The notes below the pieces were generated by a model. It was not told the DNA's origin, made no database searches, and saw only the letters and a list, made by a program, of their open reading frames with translations. From NCBI GenBank assembly GCA_024276605.1, contig JAJRWX010000050.1:5695-69694 (forward strand): a DNA stretch of 64,000 bases, written 5' to 3'. Source of the DNA: Planctomycetota bacterium. Lineage in GTDB: Bacteria > Planctomycetota > Phycisphaerae > UBA1845. Within the stretch, counting starts at the first letter, position 1. Every line of letters begins with the position of its first letter. Shown piece by piece: positions 1,163-63,007 of the stretch. The position numbers and the translations under genes were made by a program.

Positions 1163-2737
1163 ATGCAAAGTATCCACAAAAAACATTTGGTCGGACTATC
1201 TTTTGTAACCTGTTATTTGCCAATTGTCGCACTAGCGTTGATTGTTGGCATGACTGCACGAGTAAATGCTCAACCTGCTTCACCGGTAGCGTTAACCGGT
1301 GAAGCAGGTTTTACTAAGGATCGGTACATCTCATTTGATCCAAGCACGAATGGAGCGTTGCTGGTCGGCTTTCGTGTCACACGTGTCGGTAACGCGGCGC
1401 CTTGGTATGTTAGTTGTTCTTTGCGCAATGACAGAGGCCCTGATGGTTATATATCCCGCTTGATTCCCATTCCCTAATACTGTGACTGGAGTGCTATCAC
1501 GGAACTCCACGTTCACGGCTGTCAAGTCGTGCCAGGTAATTTGTACGACATCGAGGCGACGGAGGATAATGTAGATTTTTCTCTTACCTTACGCGTATCT
1601 ACGACGTCGCCGACGCCCCTTCGGGAATTCGGTGATCTTGTAGGTGGTTACATTGCTGGTTTTTGGACAGCTCCAGATGGGATGGTAACTACCGACGATA
1701 GCATCGCCGTAACTAAAAAGTTAGCCCAATCACCCGATGCCCCACTGTTGGCACGTGTTGACATAGATGGACATGACGTGGACGAACGCGTTACTACGCA
1801 AGATGTCTACCGAGCAGTGGACGCTTTTAATGATGCTTCGTTTGGATTTGGTGTGACCGGATGCAGCACTGGTACATGTATCCCGGATTGCAGCCTGAAT
1901 GCCCCAGCCATGGTTTTCGATGAGGCTGGTTTTACCAAGGATAGTTATGTATCCATCGATCCCAATACCAACAGTACTGCAGCTGTGGCGATACGTGTCA
2001 CACGTGATGCTACTAATCTACCTTTGGTGGATAGGTATGTGGATTGCACCTCGTTGGAGGATAAAGGTGCGGATGGTTGGTATGCGTCGTTGATCGACGG
2101 TCCGTTGCCAGCCCCTGGTGATGCGACCTACTACTGCGATTGGAGTGGTGTAACCACCGGATTGCATATACGAGGTTGCAGTGTGGTTCCGGGGAACGAT
2201 TATCTAGTGGCTATGACTATCGATGGTGTCGAGTTTTCGTATGATGTAGTTATTCCGACAACACCAATACCATTACCACGTGAATTCGGTGATTTGGTGG
2301 GGGCATTTGTTGCCGATGCCTGGACGGCGCCGGATGGTCTTGTGACAACCAACGATATTGTGGCACCGTTGAGGAAGTTTGGGTTGGCCGCTAATGCAGC
2401 GATTTTGGCGCGAGTAGATACTGATGGTGCCGTCCCGAATGCTATCATAGCGTCGAGTGATATCCTTAGGGCGGTTCGTGCTTTCGCCGGTGACCCATTT
2501 GGCTACGATGTGACGGATTGCGTGCTGGGGCAATGTGTTCCTCCGCGGCCCGGTATCATGATATGCAGCAATGGCGGTAGATCCTGTGGGCATACTACTA
2601 TTGCTGCTGATTGCTGCCCAGGTGTGACCTGTGACCTTGTTCTGGGTGAATGCAGTAATAATGCCAATATGGCGTGTATGTCTGATGCTGATTGCTGTCC
2701 AGCATCATGTGACGCAGTTACGCAGTTTTGTGAGTAA
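1163..2737 (+). pseudogene. Secreted two-module repeat protein with a Cys-rich C-terminus, interrupted by an in-frame TAA at 1475-1477 (or a read-through gene)
   Basis: ORFs 1163-1477 and 1529-2737 share one frame. Sequence after the stop (YCDWSAITELHVHGCQVVPGNLY) aligns with module 2 (YYCDWSGVTTGLHIRGCSVVPGNDY). The TAA sits where module 2 has Tyr TAC. There is an N-terminal signal peptide, and dockerin-like FGDLVG...WTAPDG...D.DG segments occur twice. Confidence 0.6.
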
Positions 2738-2987
2738 GTTTTGATTCTCGCTTGCAGGAGAGGGCGAGTTTGACTCGCTCTCCCTGTGTAGGAACTGTGT
2801 TGTAGACAATGGCATCCATCAGACAGCGTTCGTGTTAAACCAACAACGATTTGGCTTTAGCGTTACGGATGGATGACAAGACAGCTGTATACAAGGCGTC
2901 GTATAGCCAAACGATTGTGCCGGTCCCTGTATGTTACATGCATATATGGCAGGTGAGCATCTGAAGTGCATGGCATGCGATTTTCAA

Positions 2988-3512
2988 TTACAACGAGGCC
3001 ATGTAAGCGACTAAATCGACAAGCTCCTGGTCTGAAAAATTAAATTTCCCACCTGGGTGGGGATCGCCACCTCGCAATACCGCGTCGGTTTCTTGTGTAG
3101 AATCTCCAATAATCGATGGCGCCTCGAGTGCGCAGCCGCCGGTCCCGTCAGCGCAGTGGCAGGCGCCGCAGTTGTTGGCCGTATAAATATCCTGCCCGGC
3201 TTGGACATCACCGACTAGGCTATCTAAATCGCCTCCGTCCCCGCCGTCACTATCAGGTGAACCACCGTCATTATCCGCATCATCGACATTGTCAACTTCG
3301 TCATCAACTTGGTTTTCGACTTCCCCACTGCCGGCTATTGCATTCGCAATGTCGGTCACAAAAGAATCAACCGCCGTTCGACCCGCCGCTGAAGCTAGCT
3401 GGAATAAAACTTCCTGGTAATTCGTTCCACATCCCACTAGAAATAGAAAACCAAACGGAAGGCATAACATCGTTTCGCGTATACGTTTTGAATTCGTAGA
3501 TAGGCTCTTCAT
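2988..3512 (-). CDS. Monohaem class-I c-type cytochrome lipoprotein with an acidic low-complexity linker
   Basis: Single CGACH haem motif and lipobox FLVGCG. The C-terminus (ELVDLVAYMASL) is typical of small cytochromes c. Start is uncertain: ATG at 3512, or TTG at 3542 overlapping the upstream stop. Confidence 0.7.
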   Translation of the reverse strand: MKSLSTNSKRIRETMLCLPFGFLFLVGCGTNYQEVLFQLASAAGRTAVDSFVTDIANAIAGSGEVENQVDDEVDNVDDADNDGGSPDSDGGDGGDLDSLVGDVQAGQDIYTANNCGACHCADGTGGCALEAPSIIGDSTQETDAVLRGGDPHPGGKFNFSDQELVDLVAYMASL

Positions 3513-3538
3513 CAACCATTTTCTCCACACATATGATG

Positions 3539-4111
3539 TCAATCGTCGCCGGATAAAAGTTTTCGCAGTAATACACCTTCACCAAAATGAGGATCGTGGC
3601 AGCGAGTACAGTTTTCCACTTGGTCGCCGCTATGTGCCTCTTCACTCAAATCTTCCGGCTCATCATGACATTCCACGCACGTTTCAAAGACGGTAAGTTT
3701 AAGTAGTGTGGGGTGAATGCTACGGTGCATCTCGTGGCATGTTACGCATTCGCCTGCGATAACCGGCGCATGGCCAACTTCCTTTGAAAAATACTTCGCG
3801 TGGCAATCTCGACAGGCCTCGAGCAAGGCGTCGTCTTCACGCGGCTTCATCTGATTTTCCTGAGAATGGCAGCGCAAACATTGATGCATGCGGAATGGCG
3901 GGTGGATGGATAGGTAATCACTGACCGCAACAGTCATACCGTGGGGGGGCATGGCGACAGGTATACCATCGATAGCACCGACCGGCTGTTGCTCGTCCGG
4001 GATTTCGAAGAACCAATGAGCCAGCTTATCGCGGGTATCGGTTGAACAACCCCACAAGACAAGCATGCCCACCGCACAGGTCCACGCAACCTTGCGCATA
4101 GCTGATTCCAC
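3539..4111 (-). CDS. Pentahaem c-type cytochrome lipoprotein (cytochrome c3/c7-like)
   Basis: Five CxxCH motifs (CLRCH, CRDCH, CVTCH, CVECH, CTRCH). Signal peptide with lipobox LWGCS. Confidence 0.8.
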
Positions 4112-4358
4112 CTTTTTCTTGTCGCAGTGCGTCTGCCACGCCTTGGCACCAGTCGCTACAGTACACTTTCGTCATCATAATACAAGAGTCTTCAGTCTCG
4201 GCATTCTCTGATCCGAGAAAAAATATTTACTGATCCATGTCCGACTCCTTCGCCGACGGTAAGAAAAATGCTTTTTTTTCTTGCGACCTTGGATGCAATC
4301 GTCTATAGAACTACCGGCTTAGCTAGGCAAAGACTGTGGAAGCAATGAGAGACGTGCG

Positions 4359-6413
4359 ATGAACGGCGCGACCATCACACGAGTACCACCCCTGTTACTT
4401 ATCGCAGTTTTCGCGTTAACAGGGTCTCCGGCAGATGCTTTAGCCGAGGAAGGCAAGACCAAGCCACAAGCAACCAGCGGTTTTCTTACGCTCGATTATG
4501 GCGATGTCTATCTCGAGCTGGAAACCGAATATGCCTATACCGACATTCGGTCCCGCAGCCAACGTTTTCCCTTCGACCGCAAGCAAACGAACCGTGAATG
4601 GCGTTTCGAGGAGCGATTCGGCTTAACGCTTGGCGGCACGGTGATTGACGCTAAATTTCTGACCTATCGCGCTGACGTTAATTTCGGCCTAGTTCAGGAT
4701 CGATTTAAGTAAAGCACGAATGTTGATCACCAATCGGAAATCGATCGAGGCTACCTGCTCGAATTTGATGCCCGAGTGAATATTTTGCCCGGCGGCATAT
4801 TTTCCGGGTCAGTCTACGGCCTACGCCGCGACGATCGTATCAATCGCCGTTTCCAAACCACCTTAACCGAGCGCCGTACGAGTTTTGGGACCAGTTGGGT
4901 CTTTGCACACGATACCATGCCTATGGAACTAACCTATGATTTTACCCGCACCAGCCGCCGTGGGAATCGTGATCGTCGAGATGATGAAGAGTTCACTGAT
5001 AACGCACTGCGCTATAACGTGGATTGGCGCATTAACGAGCATCAAATTCTAAAATTTTCCTATGAACACGTGGAAAGCGAGCAACGCTATCAAGGAACCA
5101 GCCTGCGCTTTGAGACCACGCGAGACTTGATGATTACGGATCACGAATTGGCCTTCGGTGAGCAGTATCAGCACGCGCTACGCACCCGATTTCGCTGGCA
5201 AGAGGAAAGCGGCGACTTCGCGCGAGATTTATTCGAGATAGGCCCGCAACTGACGCTGTCGCATTCCGATACGTTTCAAACGATCTATAAATACCAATTT
5301 AACCGAGAACGATACGCCGGGCTGGACGTCGAAACCCAGCGATTGGACTTCCAAGCCGTGCATCAACTGTATAGTAATTTAACGACGACTTTTGATGCCT
5401 TTGCGCTGTATGAAGATATAGAAAATGACATTAACACGACACAATATGGCGCTTCGGTCGACTGGCAATACAATCGCAAGAATCGTTTCGGTCGATTTCG
5501 CGCGAATCTAGCCCTTGCGTATGACACGGAAGAAGTGGAAAGTGATGAGGGGCAACGGTTGGTGCTCGACGAGTCAGGTACTTTTCGTGACCCCATCCCC
5601 ATCACGCTGCGAAACCGCAACGTTGATGCAAGCAGTGTGATTGTCACCGATACGGGCAATCGACGTGTTTTTTCAGCCGGCATTGACTACATCGTTTTTC
5701 GACAGGATAACGTCACGCGCATCTCGCGTATACGAACCGGCCTAATCGCCGACGGCGATACGGTCTTGGTTGATTATCTGTTCAACACCCCCGCACGTGG
5801 GCAACTTGATACGGTCCGTGTGGACTTCAGCTTGGAGCAAAGATTCACCAATGGGTTAACCCCGTATTACCGCCTATCCTATCGCAATCAGGAAGATGAT
5901 GTGACGACGGGCTTCGGGCGTAGAGCCGATCGTACCGATCACCATCGCTTGGGGGTGAAATACGAAAAACAGAAATATACCTTGGATGTGGAACTCGAAA
6001 TTTTTGACGATACCATCGAGCCTTATGACGCGTTTCATATCAACGGCCTGTATCATGTCCTGCAATCTACGGATCGCACCATAGACCTATCAAGTCTATT
6101 CTCCAGGTTGTTGTTTGAAGGCGGATTTGACAATCGCAACGTGACTTTGGTTGATGTGCAGCTTGATCACCAGCGTAGAATCAGCAACACCGTATCGCTT
6201 ATGCAGCGGCTCGTCTATCGCTATGAAAGAGATTCCAGCCGGGGCATCACCCACGCCTGGGATGTATCTGCCGGGTTGGACTTTGTCGTCGGTGAGTTGT
6301 CGGGCGAACTCGTATTAGAGTACGATCGCTTGGGCTTGCCCGAATCACAGGAAGACGACTACGGGGTATTTTTCAGAGTGCGAAGAGAGTTTCCTGATGC
6401 TTTGGTGCGCTAA
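4359..6413 (+). pseudogene. Putative outer-membrane beta-barrel (porin-like, ~684 codons) split by an in-frame TAA at 4710-4712 (or a read-through gene)
   Basis: ORFs 4359-4712 and 4776-6413 share one frame, with a 21-codon stop-free linker between them. There is a signal peptide (LTGSPADALA). The sequence is rich in alternating Y/R/D/F/T residues and has no hydrophobic helices. An aromatic-rich C-terminus (GVFFRVRREF) sits close to the end. Confidence 0.5.
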
Positions 6414-6420
6414 CCAATCT

Positions 6421-7443
6421 ATGGCTACGCGGCTTTTTTGGTGCCTTTTAGTTGGCACCATAGCCAGCGGTTGTGCGCGCCCTGAAGGCACCTTATTCCC
6501 CGCACTCCAATCACCCCGCGTTTGGCCCGCGCCACCCCAGCAGTCGCGCATCGCTTATATTGGAGCCATATCCGACAGCAACGATTTACATGCTTCACAG
6601 AGTGGATGGGAAATGTTCCAAGCCGGCCTGCGCGGACCGCTACCACCCATTCGCTTTTCCGGCCCGCACGCCTTGGCGATGGGGCCTGATGGCTGGCTTG
6701 CAGTAGCAGATACATCAGCCGCAGCCGTCCACCTAATTAATATTAACACGCGCGATCATCGTATCATCGCGGGATGGCATGATGAGCGATTCGCTTCGCC
6801 GGTTGGCGTAACCTGGGTCAACCATAGACTGTTTGTAACTGATGCCCAACGGCATGAAGTCATTGAAATGGACACGACCGGCACCGTACATCGTCATTTC
6901 GGTACCGAAGATTTGCAGCGCCCCGTCGGCATCACCTTCGCCCACGCCAATCAACGCTTATATGTGGTTGACGGCGATGCACACCGAATAGCTGTGTTTA
7001 ACATGGAAGGCAAGTTGGAAAAATTCGTCGGTCAGCGTGGCACGGCACCTGGGGAGTTTAATTACCCTTCACATATCACCTCAACGGCTGATAAGCTCCT
7101 CATAGCTGACAGCGGAAACTTCCGTGTGCAGTTAATCGATTTAGATGGAAACGGCCTGCGCGTGTTCGGACAAAAAGGCGACGGTGCGGGAGATTTTTCC
7201 CTGCCCAAGGGTGTAGCCGTAGATAGCGACGGGCATATCTATGTGGTCGATGCCCATTTTGAAAACGTACAGATATTTAACCAGCAGGGTCAATTGTTAC
7301 TTTCATGGGGACAGGAAGGTAGCGGTATTGGTGCATTTATCTTGCCAGCTGGGATCGCGATCGATAGCCTAGACCGTATATGGATCGCCGATGCAGGCAA
7401 CCGCCGTATACAGGTGTTTCAATATATGAAGGCAAAATCATGA
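6421..7443 (+). CDS. NHL-repeat six-blade beta-propeller lipoprotein
   Basis: Lipobox IASGCA. Six repeats of the NHL pattern, e.g. PKGVAVDSDGHIYVVDAHFENVQIFN and PAGIAIDSLDRIWIADAGNRRIQVFQ. The gene starts 7 nt after the barrel stop. Confidence 0.8.
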   Translation: MATRLFWCLLVGTIASGCARPEGTLFPALQSPRVWPAPPQQSRIAYIGAISDSNDLHASQSGWEMFQAGLRGPLPPIRFSGPHALAMGPDGWLAVADTSAAAVHLININTRDHRIIAGWHDERFASPVGVTWVNHRLFVTDAQRHEVIEMDTTGTVHRHFGTEDLQRPVGITFAHANQRLYVVDGDAHRIAVFNMEGKLEKFVGQRGTAPGEFNYPSHITSTADKLLIADSGNFRVQLIDLDGNGLRVFGQKGDGAGDFSLPKGVAVDSDGHIYVVDAHFENVQIFNQQGQLLLSWGQEGSGIGAFILPAGIAIDSLDRIWIADAGNRRIQVFQYMKAKS

Positions 7444-9236
7444 CACGACAGGTTTCAAAACTATGCGGCATGGTGATGCTCGGCTTATTGGCTACCCTAT
7501 CGCAGGCCGACGAGTCCGTTGTAAACTCCTTGCATGACTTATCCGTGCGCGGACCGGGACCAATTAGGGCTATCCACGAAAACGAAATTTGTATTTTCTG
7601 CCATACACCGCATAACGGTGCCCCGCAAACACCACTATGGAATCGTGAAAATCCACGAACGCATTACCGCATCTACCGCAGTTCGACAACCGACGCCCGT
7701 ATCGATCAGCCGTCCGGACCATCCAAGATGTGCCTTAGTTGCCATGACGGATCGATGGCCCTGGGCAATGTGCTCTCCCGGCCCCAAACACATCCCATCG
7801 TTATGACCGCCCGCACCATTCCTCCGGGGACAGCCGACCTGAGTAACGATCTGTCCGACGATCATCCGATTGGCTTTCGTTACGACCGCGCATTATCAAA
7901 TGCCGATCCACAGATTCGGGCACCGGAACTCATCAGCAGCAAGTTGCCGCTTGGCACGCACGATGAAATGCACTGCACGACGTGTCACGATCCACACAAC
8001 AATCAGCTCGGTGATTTTTTACGCATCTCGGATCAAATGTCTGTCATGTGCATCACCTGTCACGACCTTCAAGGCTGGCCCCACGCCTCACATGCTACCA
8101 GCGGAAAACGTACCTCCGGACGGACCGTAGATCCGGTCGAGCGACTAAAATACGCCACTGTTGCCGACAACGGCTGCATCAATTGCCACAAAATTCATTC
8201 CGCCAATGAGCGAGAGAGATTGCTTCGTTTTCGCCGCGAAGAGGATGGTTGTCTGAACTGCCATAGCGGTACGATTGCCAATTTCAACATAGCCTCCGAG
8301 ATTCGTAAACGTTCCAGCCATGATCCTACGAGACGCACAGGTGTGCATGACCCTACGGAAAATACGTTGACCATGCGCCGTCATAGCGAATGCACCGATT
8401 GCCACAATCCACACGCCGCAGCCCCCAACCCCATTGGCCTGGTGCGGGGCACGCTCGGACCGCTCGTCAAAGGGCCTAATCTGCGCGTATCCGGTATCTC
8501 CATCAGCGGGCGGGAAGTCGATCACATCAGTTATAGTTATGAGATGTGCCTGAAGTGTCACGCTGACGGCGTAGCCAGACCACGATTGGTCACGTCACGA
8601 CAAGTTAGCCAGACAAACACACGACTCGAATTCCAAACGTCCAATCCATCCTTCCATCCTATCGCCGGACCACGACGAAACGCTGACGTGGTGAGTTTGC
8701 TATCACCTCTACGCGTGGGTAGTGTCATCACTTGCATCGATTGTCATAATAGTGACACGGCAAGATCCTTTGGCGGGTCTGGACCTAACGGACCGCACGG
8801 ATCTATCTATGAACCGCTGTTGGTACGCAACTACAACACAGACGATTTTACATCCGAAAGTGCACAGGCATACGCACTCTGTTATGGCTGTCACAATCGA
8901 GATAGCATTCTTGGCGATGACAGCTTCTCCCGACACCGCCGTCACATCGTCGATATACGAACGCCGTGCAGCGCCTGCCACGATGCCCACGGTATTTACC
9001 GAGGCCAGGGCAACAGCGTCAATCACGGCAGCTTGATTAACTTTGATTTATCCATCGTGCAGCCGGCCGATTCGCCGGCAGGAAGACGCATCGCCTACGA
9101 AGACACCGGACGACTATCGGGAAACTGCACGCTGACTTGTCATGGTTTTACGCATGTGACCATGCCCTATTCCAACGCCGGGCCGAGGAAATCCGCTTTG
9201 AGACCCGGTAAATTGTCACGAGGAGGCAGGCGATGA
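7440..9236 (+). CDS. Multihaem c-type cytochrome, 11 CxxCH plus 1 CX3CH (doubled-CXXCH / Geobacter-type family)
   Basis: ATGA overlap with the NHL gene stop (7440-7443). Signal peptide MTRQVSKLCGMVMLGLLATLSQA. Motifs are CIFCH, CLSCH, CTTCH, CITCH, CINCH, CLNCH, CTDCH, CLKCH, CIDCH, CYGCH, CSACH and CTLTCH. Confidence 0.85.
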   Translation: MTRQVSKLCGMVMLGLLATLSQADESVVNSLHDLSVRGPGPIRAIHENEICIFCHTPHNGAPQTPLWNRENPRTHYRIYRSSTTDARIDQPSGPSKMCLSCHDGSMALGNVLSRPQTHPIVMTARTIPPGTADLSNDLSDDHPIGFRYDRALSNADPQIRAPELISSKLPLGTHDEMHCTTCHDPHNNQLGDFLRISDQMSVMCITCHDLQGWPHASHATSGKRTSGRTVDPVERLKYATVADNGCINCHKIHSANERERLLRFRREEDGCLNCHSGTIANFNIASEIRKRSSHDPTRRTGVHDPTENTLTMRRHSECTDCHNPHAAAPNPIGLVRGTLGPLVKGPNLRVSGISISGREVDHISYSYEMCLKCHADGVARPRLVTSRQVSQTNTRLEFQTSNPSFHPIAGPRRNADVVSLLSPLRVGSVITCIDCHNSDTARSFGGSGPNGPHGSIYEPLLVRNYNTDDFTSESAQAYALCYGCHNRDSILGDDSFSRHRRHIVDIRTPCSACHDAHGIYRGQGNSVNHGSLINFDLSIVQPADSPAGRRIAYEDTGRLSGNCTLTCHGFTHVTMPYSNAGPRKSALRPGKLSRGGRR

Positions 9237-9817
9237 TCGGCGCAAAATTTCTTCTGATTAGTGTAGCCGCTGTTTGCTGCGCGATCACAGGACTCGCTTC
9301 TTCCGGCATCGAAGGGTCCAAACATGATTTCAGCGGTCAAACCGGCTCGGATGTCGATAAGTGTACGGCTTGCCACATACCGAAAAAAGATGACGCCCCA
9401 AAGGCTGCCCCACTATGGAATCAAAGAGCAGACCTTAAGAGAAGATTCAACGGCCAAGACAAACGGGTCAGCAGACCGGGAGACGGCACACGCATCTGTC
9501 TGCAATGTCACGACGGTACGATTGCCAAACCCGTCGCAGGTGGCGTCAAAACGGAACGATTTGTATACACGAAACACCCACGATTATTCACCGCTGGACA
9601 TGGCCGAAGTGACCACCCCGTGGGTGTCCTCTATCCGACCTTTAGCGATGATTTTCACCCTATCGCCACGGTGTTGTCCAAAGGGACGGTCCTATTACCT
9701 CATGGCCGGGTCGAATGCACCTCCTGCCACGACCCGCATAACCAAACTGATGCCCCGTTCATGCTCGTCCGAAGCAACGCCCGCAGCGCGCTATGTCTCA
9801 CATGCCACAAGAAGTAG
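9233..9817 (+). CDS. Tetrahaem c-type cytochrome (doubled-CXXCH type)
   Basis: ATGA overlap with the upstream stop, and AGGAGG 7 nt upstream. Signal peptide present. Motifs CTACH, CLQCH, CTSCH, CLTCH. SKHDF...C..CH.P resembles the N-terminus of the 7440 gene product. Confidence 0.8.
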   Translation: MIGAKFLLISVAAVCCAITGLASSGIEGSKHDFSGQTGSDVDKCTACHIPKKDDAPKAAPLWNQRADLKRRFNGQDKRVSRPGDGTRICLQCHDGTIAKPVAGGVKTERFVYTKHPRLFTAGHGRSDHPVGVLYPTFSDDFHPIATVLSKGTVLLPHGRVECTSCHDPHNQTDAPFMLVRSNARSALCLTCHKK

Positions 9818-9908
9818 TCATGAATGCTGCGTACTTTGGTTCCGCGCATAGACGCTTACAGCATCCTTCTTTTTTGCGTATGGCTTTTTTGAAGCCATCT
9901 TCCGGGAA

Positions 9909-11015
9909 ATGATGAGTATTGACCGCTACACAATAAAAGAGCTTGCTCTAACACGGCGTATACTCGTTTTACTGTATGTGACAACGTACTGTATGTTTTC
10001 GATGTGTGGGGGCTGTATCACTCACTCCCCCAATAAGGAACTGGTGTACTTCCCCGCCCCGCCGGCGGAACCGCATGTAGTGCATTTGAAATCGTTTAAT
10101 CGTCTTCACGATTTAGTCTCACCAAAGCTATCCTGGGTTGATCATATTCGTGGTGGGTTTGCCAGCCCCTTTGTCGCCACACCAGCCGGTATCGCCTATC
10201 ACAATCCACTTCTATATATCTGTGATACAGGCCAAGGCTATGTGCATCGTTGGAATCTACTAACGGGGCAAGCAACCCGCATTGGTGATACCGGCAATGT
10301 CACACTAGGGACACCCGTCGCCGTAGCGGTGGACGATAACCAGGATGTCTATGTGGCGGATACCAGCCGAGGCGAGGTCGTCGTCTTTGATCAAACCGGC
10401 GACATGATACATCAACTCAAACCCAAACAAGGCGAATCGATGAAGCCCGTAGCACTAGCCGTCCAAGCGGGAAAAGTGTATGTAGCCGACATCGCCCAGC
10501 ATCGCATCCTCGTATTCTCAGCGGCATCAGGCTCGTTAATCACCAGTTTCGGTGGCCCAGGCCATGCGCTCGGCGCGTTCTATTTCCCCATGGGACTAGC
10601 CACCGACCAGCATGGCCGACTATGGGTAGCCGACTCGATGAATGGCCGTGTGCAACAATTCGATCATGCCTTCAAGCCATTATCCTCTATCGGTAGTCTG
10701 GGCAATCGCTACGGTGACATGGGCAGACCTCGACACCTTGATGTCGGTCCGGACGGTGTCATCTTCGTGGCTGATACTGAATTCGCACACGTACACATGT
10801 TCGATCAAGATGGCCGATTGCTCATGCTCTTAGGAGGCCCCGAAGATCAACCTGCCGGCACACCCATGCCATTAGGCATTGCTATAGCCCGGGATGTACC
10901 TCCTCTCATTCGTGAACTGGCTCCCGCAACATTTGATCCAAAATATTACCTCTTCATCTCAAACACCGTGGGTTCACAACGCCTGAGCATCTTTGCCGTC
11001 GGAGTGAAGAAATAG
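9909..11015 (+). CDS. NHL-repeat six-blade beta-propeller (probable lipoprotein)
   Basis: Six NHL-like blades, e.g. PVAVAVDDNQDVYVADTSRGEVVVFD and FYFPMGLATDQHGRLWVADSMNGRVQQFD. The N-terminus is hydrophobic with FSMCGGC. Confidence 0.8.
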   Translation: MMSIDRYTIKELALTRRILVLLYVTTYCMFSMCGGCITHSPNKELVYFPAPPAEPHVVHLKSFNRLHDLVSPKLSWVDHIRGGFASPFVATPAGIAYHNPLLYICDTGQGYVHRWNLLTGQATRIGDTGNVTLGTPVAVAVDDNQDVYVADTSRGEVVVFDQTGDMIHQLKPKQGESMKPVALAVQAGKVYVADIAQHRILVFSAASGSLITSFGGPGHALGAFYFPMGLATDQHGRLWVADSMNGRVQQFDHAFKPLSSIGSLGNRYGDMGRPRHLDVGPDGVIFVADTEFAHVHMFDQDGRLLMLLGGPEDQPAGTPMPLGIAIARDVPPLIRELAPATFDPKYYLFISNTVGSQRLSIFAVGVKK

Positions 11016-11460
11016 AAAGAATTGAATGCTTGGTAGAGCGACAGTGTATTCACATTATCTCAATAATGGGAAATAGGCGTATTAGGCATGTCATAGATAT
11101 GTCCTTTTTGGGGGTACACAATTTCAAATCCTTTTCTCACCTTTGAGTCGGTTCAAGTCGTAACAGCTATTGTTACGATACTCCTACGTGGCAACGGCTA
11201 ATATTTTTTGTTAATCTACTACATCATCCAGATAATCACAAAGCTATACGGATGATAAAAAGCAATATAATGTGATTATGCAATGGCCTGCGGCACTTAT
11301 TGCATTTTCGCATATTGCATTGCGGCGTATTCACGAAGAATGTAATTACCATGCGAGTCTCATCGCACATGGGCAATAGCTATTCAATCGTAGATGATCT
11401 CAAGACAGTAACCTACCAGGATGATGAGTTACCTCAAAGGTTTATAGGAGGCTGAAAACC

Positions 11461-12807
11461 ATGAACAAAAAATTGAAATGTATTTCATCCGTTGGCCTAT
11501 TTGCAGTGGTTGTTACGATGTCCAGCGTTTTCATGGTACTTATCGTTGGCTGCCCTACAGTCAGCGTGGGCGGAGGCACAACCAACGGTAATAGCGGTGT
11601 CACAGGCAAATTCGTCGGCGCCGAAACATGCCTAGCCTGTCACGCAGATGATCACGCGAATTGGTCCAACACAGGGCATGCCGGCGCATTAGAAACCCTG
11701 GAAGCTATCGGCCAAGGCGAGAATGCTAGTTGCTTGGGCTGTCATACAGTAGGCTTTGGTGAAGATGGCGGCTTCGTAGACCGTGCGACCACCAACGCCC
11801 TTGTTGGGGTACAATGCGAAAACTGTCACGGCAGCGGTCGCGACCATGTAGATAATGCCATCGCAGCACGTGATGAAGGGGCAACCTTTGACGAAAGCCT
11901 GAAGCCGGTGGTTAATCTGTCTGCGCAAATGTGTGGCACCTGTCATACCGATGCCCATCATCCAACCTTCGACGAGTGGAAACTATCCAAACATTCGACG
12001 GCCCTTGAAGGTCTTCGATCCAATCCGTTTGCCAACGACAGTTGCCTGGAATGTCACTCCCAGGACTTCCGTTACCAAACAGAACTGGCCACCGAAACGG
12101 GTGATCTGAGTAACATCCCGACGTTAGATTCCGCCCTGTTTTCTATCGAATGTGTCTCTTGCCATGCCCCGCATGGCGGCGTGGCACAGAACCATCAGTT
12201 ACGTATGCCCGTGGCTGATTTGTGCGGCGAATGTCATACGCAAGAAGAGGCAACGCTAGGTAGTACGCCTCATCATCCGCAAATTGAGATGGTAACTGGT
12301 ACTGGAGGCTTCGCAGCCGACGGAACAAGCTTGGTTCAAGCCGGTCCGCATTCGAGCTTGTTTGCCAGTGATGGCGAGGCTTGCGCACAATGTCATGTGG
12401 TTACGCACGATGTGGACGAACCCAATGATGGAAATCCCAATATCACAGGACACACATTCAACCCCTTCGATGAAGATATCACGACAATATCCCCTGAGCA
12501 TCAGGCTGAACAGTTCGGTGGGTGTCTGATTTGTCACACGGCTGAAGGTGCTCAGGAACGTTTTGATCGAGTACAAACGGACATTGCAGCCAAACTCGAT
12601 GCACTAAGCCCATTCTTTGATGCAGATAACCCGTCCTTTATTGATAAGAACACACTTACAATCGAGGATCAACTGCGTTACGAGACTGCCCAGTTCAACT
12701 TTAAGTATGTCGAGGCGGATGGTAGTCAAGGCGTGCATAATGCTTCATATGCCCGGGCTTTGTTAGATATTGCAGAGACTATTTTGAATGACTTAGCCGC
12801 AACATAA
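11461..12807 (+). CDS. Nonahaem c-type cytochrome lipoprotein
   Basis: AGGAGG sits 9 nt upstream of the start. Lipobox LIVGCP. Nine CxxCH motifs (CLACH, CLGCH, CENCH, CGTCH, CLECH, CVSCH, CGECH, CAQCH, CLICH). Confidence 0.85.
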   Translation: MNKKLKCISSVGLFAVVVTMSSVFMVLIVGCPTVSVGGGTTNGNSGVTGKFVGAETCLACHADDHANWSNTGHAGALETLEAIGQGENASCLGCHTVGFGEDGGFVDRATTNALVGVQCENCHGSGRDHVDNAIAARDEGATFDESLKPVVNLSAQMCGTCHTDAHHPTFDEWKLSKHSTALEGLRSNPFANDSCLECHSQDFRYQTELATETGDLSNIPTLDSALFSIECVSCHAPHGGVAQNHQLRMPVADLCGECHTQEEATLGSTPHHPQIEMVTGTGGFAADGTSLVQAGPHSSLFASDGEACAQCHVVTHDVDEPNDGNPNITGHTFNPFDEDITTISPEHQAEQFGGCLICHTAEGAQERFDRVQTDIAAKLDALSPFFDADNPSFIDKNTLTIEDQLRYETAQFNFKYVEADGSQGVHNASYARALLDIAETILNDLAAT

Positions 12808-13127
12808 CCAAATGCCGGTCAAGCGAATACACGCATCGGTCTGATCGGTCTGGTAGCTTGAAATGACTACCGGTATGACCATTTTATTCCCTTGACTCTA
12901 GCAAAAAAAATGTACGCTCGCGCAAGAGTTGCGCGTTAACTGTGTAGCCTGTGATTGTTAGTCAATTTTTTATATTCTGGCATGGATCATGCGAGGCAGT
13001 TGTTATTGTTGAGAAATGTGAGGGTTGACCGACTTTGTAACAATAGAAACTACTTGCCCCCTGTCATAACGCTAGGCGGGGGTTGTTGGAATTACAGTAG
13101 TAGAACAACGCATGAGGAGATCAGATT

Positions 13128-14756
13128 ATGCTCAGAAAACAAACCCCGAGTTGGAAGCCGCTCATGGCCGTTGGTGTGACGGTCTCGTTATTTAGTTTGT
13201 CACTTTTGATGGTAGGTTGTCCAGGGGGCACGATCCCTCCACCTGGCAACCCCTGTGACAATGTGGACTGCCAGGATGGTCAAACCTGTATCGACGGCAC
13301 ATGCGTAGCTGATGATACGGGCAATGCCCCAACCTTACAGGGGTTAGATGCGAACAAGGCCATGATCCTACCGTTTGCGGTACAAGTCGCATACAACGAT
13401 GACACTATGTTTTTTCACATGAGCTGGGAAGGCGACCGCGGGGATACGCACGATTATTTCCGATACACCAACGGCGCTTGGCAGCGTGAAGGCGGTGTCC
13501 GACGAGATGCCCAAGCAACGATCGATAACGATCCTCTGCGTGGTTCTACCAGTATAAACTCGACAATTTACGAATCCCGCGTCACATTTATGTTGGACGA
13601 CCCCACCGGTCCTAATGCCGTCGCAGGCTTCGCCCAGTATGGCTGCATGTTAACTTGCCATGACAATAGCCGAGCTATGCCACAATGGATTCATGACGAC
13701 GGTGAGGTTCATAAGTATCTACCGGATGATAAGCCCGGTCGCTTAGACCTATGGCACCACCGCCTGGGCCGGGCTAACCCCATTGGCCTATCTGACGATC
13801 AGTGGGTAGGTCTACGACAAGGTAAGGGTGATGATGGCGTCACCGACGAAGATGGCGGTTCCCGCCAGGGCGATGCAGGCACCGGACCATACGCCACGGG
13901 AAAGACCGATGGCGATGGCAATCCGCAGTGGGTATTCGACCCCAGTACGACCGGTGGCCTTTATGCCTTTGCCTTTGGGGACTTATTTACCAGCCCGATT
14001 CGTTATTTTGCGGATGACACCGCACTCAATATAGGCCCGAATGCACCGAACCCCATCGGTATCGATTACGCCGAAGCGATAGCCATGGGCTATGTGCCAA
14101 GTGAAGGCGATACCGTGCCTCGTCGTCGACTTCGACAAACAGAAGGTAGCCGGGGAGACATCACAGCAGCCGGTACGACTTTCACACCATCAGCCAACGA
14201 TCCGCTCTTTGGCCGATGGAATTCGAATATTCAGCGTGCCATGGATACTGGCAATGATGATGACACTGCATTGGTTGACGGTAACATTTACAACATCGCT
14301 TTCGCTGTCCATGTAGGCATGGTTACCGTGCGGGATCATTATGTATCCTTCGCCTACACCCTTTCGCTAGGCGGCGGTGATGCCGACATTCAAGCTGTGA
14401 AGATTTCAGGTAGTGGCAGCGCTACGCTTCCAGACTTCTCAGATACCGCGCAGTTCCCGGTAACTAACTTGAATACCTTCTTGCCAGGCATTACCAGCTA
14501 TGAATTTCTCAATGGTGATAACGCCGGGTTGGAATACATTGATCCTGCTACGGGCACAGCCGTTGACCAGAATCACGCAGGCGCTACCGGTTTAATGACG
14601 GGAGGCTTACGTTGCCAATCGTGCCATGCCGTTAGCGATGCTGACGTAGCATCCTTTACTGCATCGGGTACTGGTGCGTTCCCCGCTGGATCTATGGAAT
14701 CGCTGGCACCACAACGCGGCGGGGTGACCTCGCCAACGCCGCTTCCCCCGCCATAG
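13128..14756 (+). CDS. Lipoprotein with a small 4-Cys module, an EB_dh/DOMON-like putative haem-binding domain and one C-terminal CxxCH
   Basis: Lipobox LMVGCP, then PCDNVDCQDGQTCIDGTCV. MFFHMSWEGD and LDLWHHRLGRANPIGLSDDQW resemble ethylbenzene-dehydrogenase-type haem domains; this rests on my memory of the family and is not verified. Also CMLTCH (CX3CH) and CQSCH. Confidence 0.5.
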   Translation: MLRKQTPSWKPLMAVGVTVSLFSLSLLMVGCPGGTIPPPGNPCDNVDCQDGQTCIDGTCVADDTGNAPTLQGLDANKAMILPFAVQVAYNDDTMFFHMSWEGDRGDTHDYFRYTNGAWQREGGVRRDAQATIDNDPLRGSTSINSTIYESRVTFMLDDPTGPNAVAGFAQYGCMLTCHDNSRAMPQWIHDDGEVHKYLPDDKPGRLDLWHHRLGRANPIGLSDDQWVGLRQGKGDDGVTDEDGGSRQGDAGTGPYATGKTDGDGNPQWVFDPSTTGGLYAFAFGDLFTSPIRYFADDTALNIGPNAPNPIGIDYAEAIAMGYVPSEGDTVPRRRLRQTEGSRGDITAAGTTFTPSANDPLFGRWNSNIQRAMDTGNDDDTALVDGNIYNIAFAVHVGMVTVRDHYVSFAYTLSLGGGDADIQAVKISGSGSATLPDFSDTAQFPVTNLNTFLPGITSYEFLNGDNAGLEYIDPATGTAVDQNHAGATGLMTGGLRCQSCHAVSDADVASFTASGTGAFPAGSMESLAPQRGGVTSPTPLPPP

Positions 14757-14823
14757 TTTTTCGCATAACAGCCTGTTTCATATAACGATATGATCGTGGC
14801 TGTGACATTTTGCATTCATCATT

Positions 14824-14860
14824 GACCCCGGCTCAGTAACCGTGCCGGGGTCTTTTTATT
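14824..14860 (+). terminator. Rho-independent terminator
   Basis: GACCCCGGC (14824-14832) pairs with GCCGGGGTC (14844-14852) and is followed by TTTTTATT. Confidence 0.7.
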
Positions 14861-15319
14861 GCATATCCAGGCGCTAATCATCAACCCTGTACGCATTGTT
14901 TAGTAAATCGACTTGCTACCGCTCAACGGCATCGGCATCCGAACGTAAGTATCTACCAATACGCTACTTACGTCATTACCAATCCTGGGCATACTTAGCC
15001 ACAAGCTCGGCCCGTATCCCGCTCAATCGATCATAGCCCACACGCTCCGCTCGAACAGGGTGAGCAACAATCCATGTGGTACCGCAAGCTAAGGCCGAAC
15101 AAATAAAATTAACTTGGAGACGAGGCGTAATTGTTACGACTCCGCCTACTTTCTCTTGACTAATATGATTTTTTCTCAATTATGGAATGACTTGCATGAG
15201 ACAGGTTGGCAATTACTAACTTTGAGAACCTATAGATCACAGGATTAAAAATGCCCTGGCGCGGGGCGTTGGTGTAGCACCTATTTCGATTCTAGTAAAA
15301 AGTATTAGGAGATCAGTCA

Positions 15320-16291
15320 ATGTTAAGAAAACGGATGATAAGTTGGCAACCGCTCATAGCCATCGGGGTAACAATGTTTATCGTAGGATGTCCTACCATC
15401 ACGACACCGCCGGACGATCCATGTGCCGGTGTGGACTGCACGGACGGCGAAACTTGCGTTGACGGTGTATGTGTCGCAGCACCAGTCGATACTACCGACC
15501 CTGTAGAGTTCACCAATGCAGACGGTATCAAAGGAGGCGCGCTGTACGACAAGTTTTACGACACACCGGATTTTGATAAAAATACTGATGACGCTGCGCA
15601 GATTATGGCATTTGGTGATTTCTTCCGCTGCAAACAGTGTCATGCTTGGGATCACCTCGGCAACATGGCCTCCTATATAGACCGTGCGCCAAAAACCACG
15701 CGGCCTAATGTGACTGCGATCAACCTGGCTGAACATGCCATGGACGAGTCTGCACAAGAATTGTTCGACGCCATAAAAACGGGAAATGGCGGACGACGAT
15801 CTGTGTCCGCTGATTTGTCCACTTACGATCCCGCTGATCCAACAACAACAGCTGTGGGCGATCAGATGCCCAATTTCGGCGAAATTCTCACGGACGCCCA
15901 GATATGGGATCTCGTCAAATATCTCAAAGAGGACTTTTTAGATACAACCCAGCTGTACGACATCGACATCACAGGAACGTATCCGGATGGAACACGGACA
16001 TTTTCAAATATCGGTAAAGACGGCGATCCGGTAAATGGGGATGCCCTATACGCAGCAAAATGTGCTGGATGTCACGGTGCAGACGGCCTTCTGATTCTCT
16101 TTGACAACGGTGAATTATCCATTGGCTCTTTCGCCCGTACTAAACCATATGAACTCTCTCACAAATCCAAGTTTGGTCAGCCCGGTTCAGCAATGGGGCC
16201 ACAAGGCATTAATACAATCGAGGATATGAAAGACCTATTCGCTGCGCTAGTTGATTCAACGAACTTTCCTGATCCCGCACCGGCCCCATAG
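15320..16291 (+). CDS. Dihaem c-type cytochrome lipoprotein with the same N-terminal leader and 4-Cys module as the 13128 gene product
   Basis: Lipobox FIVGCP, then PCAGVDCTDGETCVDGVCV. Motifs CKQCH and CAGCH. Confidence 0.75.
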   Translation: MLRKRMISWQPLIAIGVTMFIVGCPTITTPPDDPCAGVDCTDGETCVDGVCVAAPVDTTDPVEFTNADGIKGGALYDKFYDTPDFDKNTDDAAQIMAFGDFFRCKQCHAWDHLGNMASYIDRAPKTTRPNVTAINLAEHAMDESAQELFDAIKTGNGGRRSVSADLSTYDPADPTTTAVGDQMPNFGEILTDAQIWDLVKYLKEDFLDTTQLYDIDITGTYPDGTRTFSNIGKDGDPVNGDALYAAKCAGCHGADGLLILFDNGELSIGSFARTKPYELSHKSKFGQPGSAMGPQGINTIEDMKDLFAALVDSTNFPDPAPAP

Positions 16292-16318
16292 GCCTGTCCT
16301 TAATCTTTAGTCATTTTG

Positions 16319-16353
16319 AAACCCGCGATCACTCGACGATCGCGGGTTTTTTA
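16319..16353 (+). terminator. Rho-independent terminator
   Basis: AAACCCGCGATC (16319-16330) pairs with GATCGCGGGTTT (16338-16349), extended by a T-run. Confidence 0.7.
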
Positions 16354-16704
16354 ACGCGCATTGACTGGCGTGGATGCTGTATTCATATTGCGCATGGTTA
16401 TACCTGTAGCGTACTGGATCCCCAGCCTGTTTGATGGAATTGCCGAAGTCGCAACGTGAAGGCATAAACATGCCAACGACGCTCCTTCCACACTCATCGC
16501 ATTTGACAAAAGCGTACAACACGCGGTAACACAAATGTAGCTCATGCCTCGATAGCGTTCACCAACCGCAGTGCAGCCGCATCTGGGCTTTTCTTCACGT
16601 ACTGACATCACGGACTTCTCAATACCGGCGGTTGGTGTTTCGTGAATTTGCTGATCGAAATTCACCGTTCGGCACGGAAATTGCGTGTAAATTACCGTAG
16701 AGCT

Positions 16705-16800
16705 AGCTCTATTAAACTGTAGTGTCCGGTAGCAGATTTTGGGGGAGGTTATCGATGTTTGACCGCTACACGCTATAGGAATGCTAGTGATGGTTTCATG
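16705..16800 (+). promoter_or_regulatory. Conserved leader-like element, copy 1, with GGAGG plus mini-ORF MFDRYTL (16755-16778)
   Basis: A 30-nt block (25 identical positions) and a 28-nt block (24 identical) are shared with 21149-21251. GGAGG lies 6 nt before the ATG. The element sits 40-130 nt upstream of the membrane cytochrome gene. Confidence 0.35.
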
Positions 16801-16841
16801 ATGTCATGCGTCTTCTGCCTATAAAGTTGGAATAATTGAAA

Positions 16842-19455: not shown

Positions 19456-19866
19456 TCACGCCTTCAATAACCATTCGACCACAGGTTGGGAGGGCACATC
19501 AAAGTCGTATTCGCGTAAGTGAGCTTTAGGTATCCAGCGTAAATGGTTATCCGTCGTTTCCTTGACCTCGCCACTAATCACGCCGCAAAAGAAATAACGA
19601 AGCTCGGTTGCCTGACCATCAATGTTTTCCATCAATGGCGGCTGACCAGCGACCACTTCAATGGTTAGCCCAAGCTGCTCTACAGCCATGCGGCGTATGG
19701 CTTGTTCCGGCGTTTCATGCTCATTAGCCAAGTCACGCGGAAATGTCCACAGGCCGGTCCCTTCCATCGCATCGCGACCGGCGCCAACGCGTTCAATGAG
19801 CATGTGATTATCCGAACGTTCAATTAACCCGGCCACACAGATCCTTCGAGATTGCCGATGACTCAT
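19456..19866 (-). CDS. NUDIX-family (MutT-like) protein with a degenerate Nudix box
   Basis: GLWTFPRDLANEHETPEQAIRRMAVEQLGL resembles GxWxFPGGxxExGETPEQAxxRELxEExG. The RE and EE positions are replaced by RM and EQ. Confidence 0.6.
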   Translation of the reverse strand: MSHRQSRRICVAGLIERSDNHMLIERVGAGRDAMEGTGLWTFPRDLANEHETPEQAIRRMAVEQLGLTIEVVAGQPPLMENIDGQATELRYFFCGVISGEVKETTDNHLRWIPKAHLREYDFDVPSQPVVEWLLKA

Positions 19867-46662: not shown

Positions 46663-46743
46663 CGTGACATACTTTCAGAGCAATTATCCGCTGCCCAATC
46701 TTCCGTCACAGCATTCGAAGAAGGCATCCAAGTACTTGAGGGT

Positions 46744-59903: not shown

Positions 59904-62900
59904 ATGATTGATCGAGTATTTGAGTTCAGCCTGAAGAACCGTCCCCTGGTGGCGGTGCTCTCGGTTCTCGTCATGGCGTCAGGGTATTACGCCTATCGCG
60001 AACTACCCGTAGATGCTTTTCCCGACGTATCGCCGAACCTAGTGCAGATCTTCACTTTGACTGAAGGGCTTGCCCCGGAGGAAGTCGAGAAATACGTCAC
60101 ATATCCGGTCGAAGTAGCCATGATGGGCTTACCGGGGATAGAAAAGGTCCGTTCCGTTTCCAATTTCGGTCTTCCGTGGTCAATGTGTACTTCGAAGACG
60201 GCATGGACATTTACTTCTGTCGCCAGGTAGTCAACGAACGGCTTCAGGAGGCCCGCGAGCAAATCCCCGAGGGGTTCGGTGACCCTGCGATGGGGCCTAT
60301 CTCCACGGGGATGGGGCTTGTGTTGTTCTATTACCTCCAGGATACGACGGGGCAGTATTCGCTGGAGGAGTTGCGGACGATCCAGGACTGGGTGGTCAAG
60401 TTCCATCTCCAGACCGTCCCGGGCGTGACCGAGGTGTTGGGGATCGGCGGGTGGGAAAAGCAGTTTCACGTAGTCGTCGATCCCGATGGACTGTTGCAAT
60501 ACGACGTGACCCTTAGTGAGTTGATCGCGCGGGTTCGGGCGAACAACCTCAACGTCGGGGCACAATTTATCGAAAAGGACGCTGAGGAGTTTATCGTCCG
60601 CTCGCTGGGGTTGGCCCGTGGTATCGACGACCTTGAGTCCATTATCGTTAAGACCGAGGATGGTCGACCGGTCTACCTGCGCGAACTGGCGGAAGTGAAA
60701 ATCGGTGGCGCTATCCGGCGCGGCGTGCAGACGCGCAATGGCGTGGAAGAGGTCGTAGCCGGCATGGTTATCAAGCTGTTCGGCACGAACTCCTCGACGG
60801 TGATCGCCGATGTTGAGCAGAAACTGGAAGAGATCAACAAGATTCTGCCGGACGGTATTCACATCGTCCCGTATTACGAACAGAAGAGCATTGTCCAGGC
60901 GGCGGTTCACACGGTCACGAGTGCACTGCTCCAGGGGATTGCGTTGGTCGTGCTGGTTCTGCTTGTCTTTATGGGAGCGTTGCGTCCTAGCATCGTCGTT
61001 GCGTTCTCGGTTCCCTTCTCCATACTCTTCGCCTTCATCCTGATGGATTACTTCGGTATTTCAGCCAATCTGATGTCGTTCGGGGGGCTGGCGATTGCCA
61101 TTGGTATGATGGTGGACGGGACGATTGTGATGGTTGAAAACGCGGATCGGATGCTGCGTGATGCGGCTCCCAATGAACCGCGTTTGATGGTCGTGAGCCG
61201 TGCATCACAAGAGGTCGGTCGGCCAATCGCTTTTGCCATCGTGATTATCATCGTTGTCTTTCTACCGTTGTTCACGCTTCAGGGCGTTGAAGGCAAAACG
61301 TTTCGTCCACTGGCCTACACCGTCGCCCTGGCCATGCTCGGTTCGCTGATTTTCGCTCTTGTCCAGGCGCCGATGCTGAGCACGTTACTGATGCGCGCAC
61401 CCCAGTCGCGGAATAACAACGACACACGCAGGGAATCGTTTGTCGTGCATTTGCTGCTTATTCCGTACCGGCCTCTGGTACGCTTCTTCGTTCGACAGCG
61501 CTGGGCAGCCGTGATGATGGCGCTGCTCATGCTAGGTGCCGGTATCGTCGTCTTTCCGCTGTTGGGATCGGAGTTTACGCCGAAGTTGAACGAGGGAACC
61601 ATCGTACTTCGTTTGACGATGGCACCCTCGATCTCGCTGGTGCATAGTACCGAAACAACGCTTATCGCCGAACGGCGCGTGCTTCAAGTTCCGGAAGTGC
61701 GCGAGGTTGTGACACGCATCGGTCGCGGCGAGGTCGGTGCACACACGGATCCGGTCAACAGCGCCGAGATGTACGTCCTACTCAAGCCGGAATCCGAATG
61801 GCCACCGGGTGTGGGGCAAAGCGAGATCGAGTCAGCGATTCGTGAGGTTGTCGCTGATATGCCCGGGGTACTAGCCAATATTACGCAACCTATTGAGATG
61901 ACCGTCGATGAGCTTTTGGAGGGTGTTCGCGCCGAACTGGCCATCAAGCTATTTGGTGACGACCTCGATGTGCTCAAGCGCAAAGCCGACGAGATTGCGG
62001 CTGTGGTTCGTTCGGTACGCGGGGCGGCGGACATGCAGGTGGATCAGGTGAGTGGGACACCACAACTGCTGATCCGTGTTAATCGCCAAGCCATTGCCCG
62101 ATATGGGTTCAATATCACCGATGTGCAGGACGTCATCCGTGCGGCTGTAGGTGGTGAGGTGGCGGGGCAGGTATTCGAAGGGATTCGGCGTTTTGATATT
62201 TTGGTTCGCTACGAGCCTAAGGCGCGTAGTTCCGCCGATGCCATACGGGGCATCATCATTGCTACGCCGGGCGGCATGAAAGTTCCATTGGAGCAACTGG
62301 CTTCGATCCAAGAGATCACCGGTCCTCGCCAGATCACACGCGAAAACAATCAGCGTTTTATTACGGCCCAGTGTAATGTGGTGGGACGCGACATTGGTTC
62401 GTTTGTAGAGGAGGCAAAGAAGAAGATCGACGAGAAGGTGGATTTGCCGGCAGGTTATCTGGTGACATGGGGAGGGCAGTTTCGATTACAACAAGAGGCT
62501 AATCGCCGCCTGCTCGTCGTGGTGCCCGTGACGCTGCTGATTATTTTTCTTATGCTGTTCAGCAATTTCCATTCTTTGAAAAATGCGTTGCTGATTCTCA
62601 TGAATATTCCACTTGCGTTGGTTGGCGGTGTAGTTGCGCTGTGGCTTTCGGGACAAAACCTCTCCGTCCCTTCGTCCGTTGGTTTTATTGCCCTGTTCGG
62701 TATTGCCGTGGAGAACGGTATGGTGCTGGTCACTTATTTCAACCAGCTCGTTAGGGAGGGTGTTTCGGTAGATGAAGCCTCGCAGCGCGGTGCGTGCCTG
62801 CGTTTGCGTCCCGTGTTGATGACCGCCGTAACTACCGCATTGGGTTTAATTCCGCTACTGATATCAAGCGGTACGGGTAGTGAGGTTCAACGTCCCTTGG

Positions 62901-63007
62901 CTACGGTTGTCATCGGAGGTTTGGTGACATCGACCGCACTGACCTTATTGGTCATCCCGGCATTGTATAAGTGGTTCGCACCTGCCGAAAAAGAAGTAGT
63001 GATCTGA
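59904..63007 (+). pseudogene. CzcA/CusA-family heavy-metal efflux RND pump with a -1 frameshift near 60171-60175
   Basis: The N-terminal 90 aa (59904 frame) end ...VRSVSNFGL. The remainder continues in another frame as VVNVYFEDGMDIYF. Restoring one T in CTTCC (to CTTTCC) gives GLSVVNVYFEDG, the family-typical sequence. Confidence 0.85.

Follow-up and report, generated by a model that had tools for sequence, protein, structure and literature searches.

The gene at positions 1163–2737 of the window, which is the whole 64-kb stretch of DNA that was analyzed, encodes a protein with two tandem modules. A single internal stop codon, the TAA at 1475–1477, is present in this reading frame, which is then open up to the TAA at 2735–2737. 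The two ORFs on both sides of the interruption, one of 104 amino acids that starts with ATG and another one of 402 amino acids that starts with GTG, share the same frame (Table 1). The joined product is 524 amino acids long and consists of a signal peptide, module 1 (residues 39–242), module 2 (residues 246–461), and a Cys-rich tail of 63 residues. The Sec signal peptide of ORF 1163–1477 was assigned by inspection, taking into consideration its basic n-region, its long hydrophobic core, and the sequence ..RVNA/QP. No signal peptide was found by inspection in ORF 1529–2737.

Table 1. Location of the interrupted gene, its parts, and the other lesions in the window
Feature	Position	Strand	Description
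5′ fragment	1163..1477	+	ATG start; signal peptide of the Sec type, MQSIHKKHLVGLSFVTCYLPIVALALIVGMTARVNA/QP; then ~66 residues from the start of module 1, up to the premature TAA
Module 1 (residues 39–242)	1277..1888	+	Short-loop type; end ..GTCIPDCS; the TAA lies inside
Premature in-frame TAA	1475..1477	+	Context TAA-T; aligned residue Glu (GAA) in the nearest homologous module, Tyr in long-loop modules
Gene-finder ORF (P0001)	1529..2737	+	GTG start; 402 amino acids; its start falls midway through the beta-sandwich of module 1
Module 2 (residues 246–461)	1898..2545	+	Long-loop type (PLPAPGDATYYCDWS)
Cys-rich tail (residues 462–524)	2546..2734	+	Two ..DCCP..C.. repeats, inserted after module 2 and before the C-terminal 'CE' that is typical of the family
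Genuine terminator TAA	2735..2737	+	Immediately 3′ of the C-terminal 'CE'; same ending in 13/35 non-self relatives
Stem-loop just 3′ of the gene	2745..2794	+	−27 kcal/mol; z = −3.2; no T-tract
Second TAA	4710..4712	+	In the 684-amino acid outer-membrane beta-barrel gene 4359–6413; column Glu in 118/119 full-length homologues
Third TAA	46660..46662	+	In the 622-amino acid membrane-anchored coiled-coil gene 45577–47445; variable column (Q5 E5 R3 D3..); nearest relatives CAG
1-base frameshift	60168..60179	+	In a czcA/AcrB-type RND pump gene; GGTCTTCCGTGG; base missing at ~60172, most simply T

The two modules share 47% identity (BLASTP, E = 4e-60), and the family profile matches both of them over positions 2 to 205 or 206 (E = 1.8e-80 and 4.2e-93). 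The motifs conserved in the family are GFTKDRY, [YF]C.W, LHV.GC, VPGN.Y, FGD.VG, WTAPDG, ARVD.DG, and FG.GVT.C..G.C.P. The homology, far stronger than chance would give, is uninterrupted across the stop codon, where the translation reads ..SRLIPIP-stop-YCDWSAITELHVHGCQVVPGN.. and the family residues YCDWS..LHVHGC..VVPGN are found right behind the TAA, those up to LHVHGC within the 17 codons that precede the GTG at 1529. These comparisons agree with a first-pass annotation of this DNA, which had placed the TAA inside one gene with two tandem modules in the same frame and a Cys-rich tail, had extended the homology beyond the stop up to the GTG, and had taken the latter as a mere restart chosen by the gene caller. 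In fact, the entry P0001 of the protein collection is exactly the fragment 1529–2737. The strong hairpin that follows the terminal TAA is likely the transcript end, and it fits 1163–2737 as a single transcription unit.

The module and its relatives

A word-indexed search of a 5.8-billion-protein collection identified 35 non-self relatives, and an exhaustive search of representatives identified 691 cluster representatives. The relatives originate from Planctomycetota/Phycisphaerae metagenome-assembled genomes (MAGs), and none among the 35 non-self relatives and the 691 representatives is interrupted at the stop position. The homologues are all continuous, with no split into two genes that have their own starts. 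Two of the proteins compared, P0002 and P0003, have two tandem modules each, both uninterrupted. The best full-length relative of the joined gene shows 51% identity, and a contig-level genome scan found only paralogues, ~50–59% identical, from two other MAGs.

In large secreted proteins the module, of ~205 amino acids, nearly always occupies the extreme C-terminus. The domains found with it include M28, M10, M64, M6, M43, astacin, and trypsin-like peptidases, FG-GAP, GSDH, and PKD, and in one case 'choice-of-anchor B'. The proteins of the family terminate in ..CE or ..CP. The module has no Pfam match, even at E ≤ 10, and matches nothing in NCBIfam or among PDB sequences. In an AlphaFold model, module 2 consists of a confident N-terminal beta-sandwich (pLDDT >90, residues ~20–120) and a C-terminal half that is helical and of low confidence. 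A fold search produced weak FN3/Ig-like matches for the N-terminal half of the module and nothing stronger. The C-terminal placement on secreted enzymes, including the one with the 'choice-of-anchor B' partner, suggests that the module may play a role in anchoring or sorting. In its location at the extreme C-terminus of varied secreted enzymes it is like dockerin-like and other C-terminal anchoring or sorting modules, and its D.DG...D repeats recall Ca-binding loops. Neither the module nor any family member matched Dockerin_1 (PF00404). Unlike sorting or anchoring modules, the ~205-amino acid module has no transmembrane or sortase-type signal, and its proteins end in the dipeptides mentioned above. 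As a side product of this analysis, it can be described as an uncharacterized C-terminal domain that is widespread in secreted Planctomycetota enzymes.

The codon at the interruption

The column of the family alignment that corresponds to the stop codon is bimodal, with Tyr or Glu depending on the class of the loop. The residue is Tyr in 21 of 21 long-loop modules (..IDGPLPAPGD.TYYC..), and the short-loop modules (..LVQTPEFC..) have Glu (22 cases) or one of a few other residues, but never Tyr. The loop of module 1 is short (LIPIP-stop-YC). Its closest relative, residues 415–623 of P0177, is 62% identical and aligns without gaps around the site, where SRLIPVP-E-FCDW in P0177 corresponds to SRLIPIP-stop-YCDW in module 1; the P0177 codon in this column is GAA. 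A further short-loop module reads ..LPEYC.. at the same site.

It had been proposed in the first pass that the TAA replaced a conserved Tyr codon through a change at the third position. The Tyr was deduced from module 2, which is of the long-loop type (PLPAPGDATYYC), whereas module 1 is of the short-loop type and its closest relatives have Glu, and a change from GAA to TAA is therefore likelier. It was upheld that a single base separates the TAA from a sense codon; the conserved Tyr and the third position were not upheld. Considering the alignments, we infer that the most parsimonious ancestral change would be GAA to TAA, by a first-position G to T substitution at base 1475, and that a change from TAY to TAA at base 1477 is probably not what took place. 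Tyr keeps some likelihood as the ancestral residue because no true orthologue exists, P0177 being, at 62% identity, a relative at the level of a paralogue.

Other lesions in the window

Candidate in-frame stops were collected by a mechanical scan of the window and then subjected to homology searches. Two further TAA interruptions, already mentioned in the first-pass annotation, are present, one in a gene for an outer-membrane beta-barrel protein and the other in a gene for a membrane-anchored coiled-coil protein (Table 1). The TAA at 1475 had been ranked as the best supported of the three, a place that belongs to the one at 4710, given the almost invariable Glu in its column. The codons in this column are GAA and GAG in the two nearest relatives. 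The beta-barrel gene is located in a conserved syntenic cluster together with multihaem cytochromes and NHL-repeat proteins. The fourth lesion is a frameshift in the czcA/AcrB-type gene, where the ACR_tran profile is split over two frames, with profile positions 2–85 in one (starting at 59904) and 89–1020 in the other (60176–63007).

The tally for the window is four single lesions in otherwise pristine genes for envelope proteins, in 64 kb and about 47 genes. Deviations from the family in module 1 affect 5 of 47 conserved columns, versus 9–10 of 48 in the internal modules of the intact P0002 and P0003. The outer-membrane protein has one other deviation among 158 columns that are at least 95% conserved, a CGA to CTA change (Arg to Leu), which is also G to T. 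Judging from these comparisons, the lesion at 1475 would be very recent if it is in the organism's DNA; the lack of decay fits a recent mutation and a sequence error alike. No interrupted gene was found in 92.8 kb from related MAG loci. Two scans of JGI metagenome contigs for the exact sequences that surround 1475 and 4710, in which the variable base was masked, produced 0 matches.

The other candidates were rejected. The TAG at 9849 falls in a non-coding frame that overlaps a real cytochrome gene, and the TAA at 59877 is the true stop of an HlyD-type gene, with the start of czcA following in the same frame. The candidates at 48976, 62486, 24419, and others correspond to alternative frames of known genes, and the candidate in-frame stop at L003:1711 lies in antisense low-complexity sequence. 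An E to L deviation in the coiled-coil protein was discarded as part of a poorly aligned stretch.

Mutation, sequence error, or decoding

The explanation that we prefer, and to which we give about an even chance, is that the TAA at 1475–1477 is an ordinary premature stop that originated by one base substitution, i.e., a very recent mutation or null allele in the organism. A G to T transversion at base 1475 would have turned GAA (Glu) into TAA within module 1. The ribosomes would stop at this codon and release a fragment of ~104 amino acids, about 70 after cleavage of the signal peptide. The remaining 420 codons would be left untranslated or, by re-initiation at the GTG at 1529, would give a product with a truncated first domain and no export signal. 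Since this remainder lacks an export signal and its first codon lies within a domain, the gene as recorded is presumably non-functional, and it would represent a very recent pseudogene or a null allele, possibly segregating. Two or three of the stops, as well as the nearby Arg to Leu change, would be G to T substitutions on the coding strand, which would fit a mutation process biased towards G:C to T:A (8-oxoguanine type) in the lineage.

The locus is like known nonsense pseudogenes in that a single in-frame stop is found within a domain, the homology on both sides is to intact proteins, the stop codon is one that is normally used, and the part 3′ of the stop lacks its own export signal. It differs from them in two ways: secondary decay has not accumulated, which makes the lesion very recent or else confines it to the assembly, and with three stops and one frameshift the 64 kb have an unusually high density of lesions. 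For a free-living bacterium, four fresh inactivating lesions among about 47 genes are a high load, which counts against real mutation. The same can be said of the mildly non-random nature of the substitution lesions, all three of which are TAA with two informative at Glu. The changes from GAA to TAA, twice, and from CGA to CTA, all G to T, resemble 8-oxoguanine transversions, which can come from a mutM/mutY mutator or from an oxidative library artefact; the likeness is limited by the number of events, only 3–4, with a polarity deduced from paralogues and distant orthologues.

An error of sequencing, assembly, or polishing in the MAG, which would leave the true gene intact (with GAA or TAY) and would also account for the other TAAs and the czcA frameshift, is a serious contender to which we assign a probability somewhat short of one half. 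Oxidative (8-oxoG) damage to DNA while samples or libraries are prepared classically shows as G to T changes, and the substitutions are chemically uniform; at low coverage, errors of this type could end up in the consensus of a MAG-type NCBI contig such as this one, of 70,776 bp. However, for a contig of 70 kb the coverage is usually sufficient to out-vote random read errors. In addition, when 3.5% of random substitutions are nonsense, three stops imply roughly 80–90 substitution errors versus one indel, which we consider odd for any platform. Both points favor a real mutation. The error is also made plausible by the contrast between the four single lesions in perfectly conserved genes within 64 kb and the absence of lesions in the 92.8 kb of related MAGs, an absence that could indicate consensus error as well as it could be accommodated by mutation. 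The affected genes show no secondary decay, and one of the lesions hits a Glu that is kept in nearly all homologues, in a conserved respiratory gene cluster. Against the error, housekeeping genes of the window (AdoHcyase, SdhA/B, TrkA/H, and P-II) are full length with normal Pfam matches, and the sigma factors are also full length.

It is very unlikely that the internal TAA is decoded, by occasional read-through or as a codon with a dual meaning (e.g., Glu inserted by a suppressor tRNA), and that the full secreted protein of 524 amino acids is made. The known alternative codes include UGA read as Trp or Gly in bacteria, UAG read as Gln in phages, and, in the protist Blastocrithidia, UAR read as Glu with a dual use of UAA. 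The case is like a stop-codon reassignment in that the in-frame stops are found where the homologues have sense codons and two informative sites are at Glu. Genes in the window are interrupted by TAA only, never by TAG or TGA, and they show no further decay. The residues aligned to the TAAs, at three sites only, are Glu in 118 of 119 homologues at 4710, Glu in the nearest relatives and Tyr in the other loop class at 1475, and Q, E, R, or D at 46660, where the column is compatible with Glu.

The expectations for such a pattern were calculated from the codon usage of the window. Random single-base substitutions would be nonsense in 3.5% of the cases, with TAA making up 37% of the nonsense changes. 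The probability that three of three nonsense lesions are TAA would then be 4–5% under random substitution, and about 12%, from the same shares, that all three are any one stop codon. If G:C to T:A changes alone are considered, TAA represents about 50% of the nonsense outcomes, and GAA is the precursor of about 60% of these TAAs. GAA is also simply the commonest codon one step away from TAA (530 of 2052). Stops that are all TAA and mostly at Glu would be expected of a G to T-biased process, and recoding is not needed to explain the pattern.

Several properties of the window argue against decoding. Its commonest terminator is TAA (TAA 18, TGA 15, and TAG 11 among 44 confident genes). Unlike in a reassignment, the same codon ends the three interrupted genes exactly at the C-termini of their closest homologues, which are ..CE for the module protein, ..DALVR for the outer-membrane protein, and ..HQLENN for the coiled-coil protein, and there are only 3 internal occurrences in about 17,500 codons. 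No tRNA, suppressor or otherwise, and no Rfam element, including recoding elements, was found within the 64 kb. All homologues have a sense codon, and none has a stop, at 1475, 4710, or 46660. The czcA frameshift in the same window indicates that the lesions are not specific for TAA. The base after the premature stop is T, and in E. coli no context terminates more strongly than TAA-T. The 120 nucleotides 3′ of the stop fold no better than shuffled sequences (z = −0.74). Both RF1 and RF2 read UAA. The decoding or read-through that was implicit in the first-pass annotation thus found no support. As far as the accounts in two sources extend, the stop-codon reassignments known in bacteria are all of UGA, and none of UAA is known (PMC8629427; PMC13462651). 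A dual use of UAA in this Phycisphaerae lineage, usually as terminator and occasionally as Glu or another residue via a suppressor tRNA, is a long shot that, if true, would have no reported precedent among bacteria as a recoding of UAA.

Two separate genes, a small secreted peptide encoded by 1163–1477 and an independent 402-amino acid protein that starts at the GTG, are extremely improbable even if gene finders call the second ORF: the break falls inside one confidently predicted beta-sandwich, which excludes two ORFs that are separate genes of one domain each, the codons between TAA and GTG are homologous to the family, the homologues are continuous, and the second ORF has no signal peptide despite being Cys-rich and having secreted relatives.

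A gene disrupted by a nonsense mutation, as we prefer to read this one, is, like a sequence error, an already known kind of thing and not a new genetic code. The practical meaning is a quality or pseudogene flag on three genes and czcA in a MAG, and the gene 1163–2737 is better annotated as disrupted than as a 402-amino acid protein. If the TAAs are real and a G:C to T:A mutator signature is found genome-wide, the window would belong to a natural mutator or to a decaying uncultured Phycisphaerae that carries a gene cluster of the extracellular-electron-transfer type. If they are real and are accompanied by systematic TAA at Glu and a tRNA(UUA), the recoding just mentioned would apply.

The cluster of interruptions that are TAA only and compatible with Glu is a residual curiosity. 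The regions that flank the three TAAs are SRLIPIP and YCDWSAITELHVHGCQ at 1475, DRFK and STNVDHQ at 4710, and HYLK and RDILSEQ at 46660.

Interrupted genes and the probable direction of base change

Of the interruptions in the window, the in-frame TAA that splits the gene for the beta-barrel outer-membrane protein has the best support. The aligned column holds Glu in 118 of 119 homologues, and the joined protein is covered over 100% of its length by homologues of approximately 685 aa. Among the columns of this protein that are conserved at 95% or more, the only other departure is an Arg to Leu substitution at 6096-6098, where the codon is CTA and the relatives have CGA or CGC. The substitution is a further G→T transversion, a hint that the spectrum of mutation or damage is biased towards G:C→T:A.

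Two other genes are disrupted. The nearest relatives of the coiled-coil protein are 70-71% identical, have a length of 622-666 aa and carry Gln (CAG) at the site of the stop. In the czcA/AcrB-type gene, the first 89 residues, at the N-terminus, are encoded in one frame and the other 943 residues in another.

The NUDIX hydrolase is of relevance solely through a possible oxidative-damage signature. Its similarity to MutT (8-oxo-dGTPase) is weak, far under the NCBIfam cut-offs. Loss of MutT would lead to A:T→C:G changes, an expectation that does not match the G→T changes of the window.

Features discussed in this part, with their positions in the window unless a locus is named
Feature	Position	Details
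Beta-barrel outer-membrane protein gene, 684 aa	4359-6413	In-frame TAA 4710-4712
Coiled-coil protein gene, 622 aa	45577-47445	In-frame TAA 46660-46662; N-terminal membrane anchor
czcA/AcrB-type RND transporter gene	59904-63007	1-base deletion at ~60171-60175, GGTCTT[T]CCGTGG
HlyD/CusB-type gene	58635-59879	Intact; upstream of czcA/AcrB-type gene
Small NUDIX hydrolase	19456-19866	Intact; - strand
~205-aa module	1277-2545	Family members P0002-P0036, P0177-P0309
Cys-rich tail	2546-2734	Two ..(A/D)DCCP..(T/S)CD.V...C.. repeats
Strong GC-rich stem-loop	2745-2794	8 nt past stop of gene 1163-2737; -27 kcal/mol, z=-3.2
Flanks of P0177 gene	L009 1-2970 and 8968-9870	Serine recombinase, reverse-transcriptase fragment, rve/DDE transposase
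Conserved multihaem cytochrome cluster	2988-19160	Syntenic: L005 8639-18307, L006 471-9221

The module family

The ~205-aa module is a C-terminal domain without a name that is widespread in secreted Planctomycetota proteins (691 cluster representatives), where its partners include peptidases, FG-GAP, GSDH, PKD and choice-of-anchor B; searches of Pfam, NCBIfam and PDB gave zero matches. Two subclasses were distinguished, one with a long loop, YYC and the terminus ..PPQGGxCE, and the other with a short loop, EFC and the terminus ..CVPSCP. The Cys-rich tail, found in none of the retrieved homologues, is an insertion that separates the end of module 2 from the terminal "CE" of the family. The stem-loop that follows has no T-tract; this hairpin probably marks the end of the transcript or stabilises it.

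P0177, a retrieved homologue of 1760 aa, carries the module that is most closely related to module 1. A serine recombinase, a reverse-transcriptase fragment and an rve/DDE transposase flank its gene, and this arrangement suggests that mobile regions can house large module-bearing proteins.

The cytochrome cluster

The c-type multihaem cytochromes of the conserved cluster are of the Paired_CXXCH, c554 and MtrC-like types, and a NapC/NirT-like cytochrome also belongs to it. The other members are NHL-repeat beta-propellers, an EB_dh-like protein and the beta-barrel protein described above. The cluster looks like an extracellular electron-transfer module of the porin-cytochrome type in Phycisphaerae.
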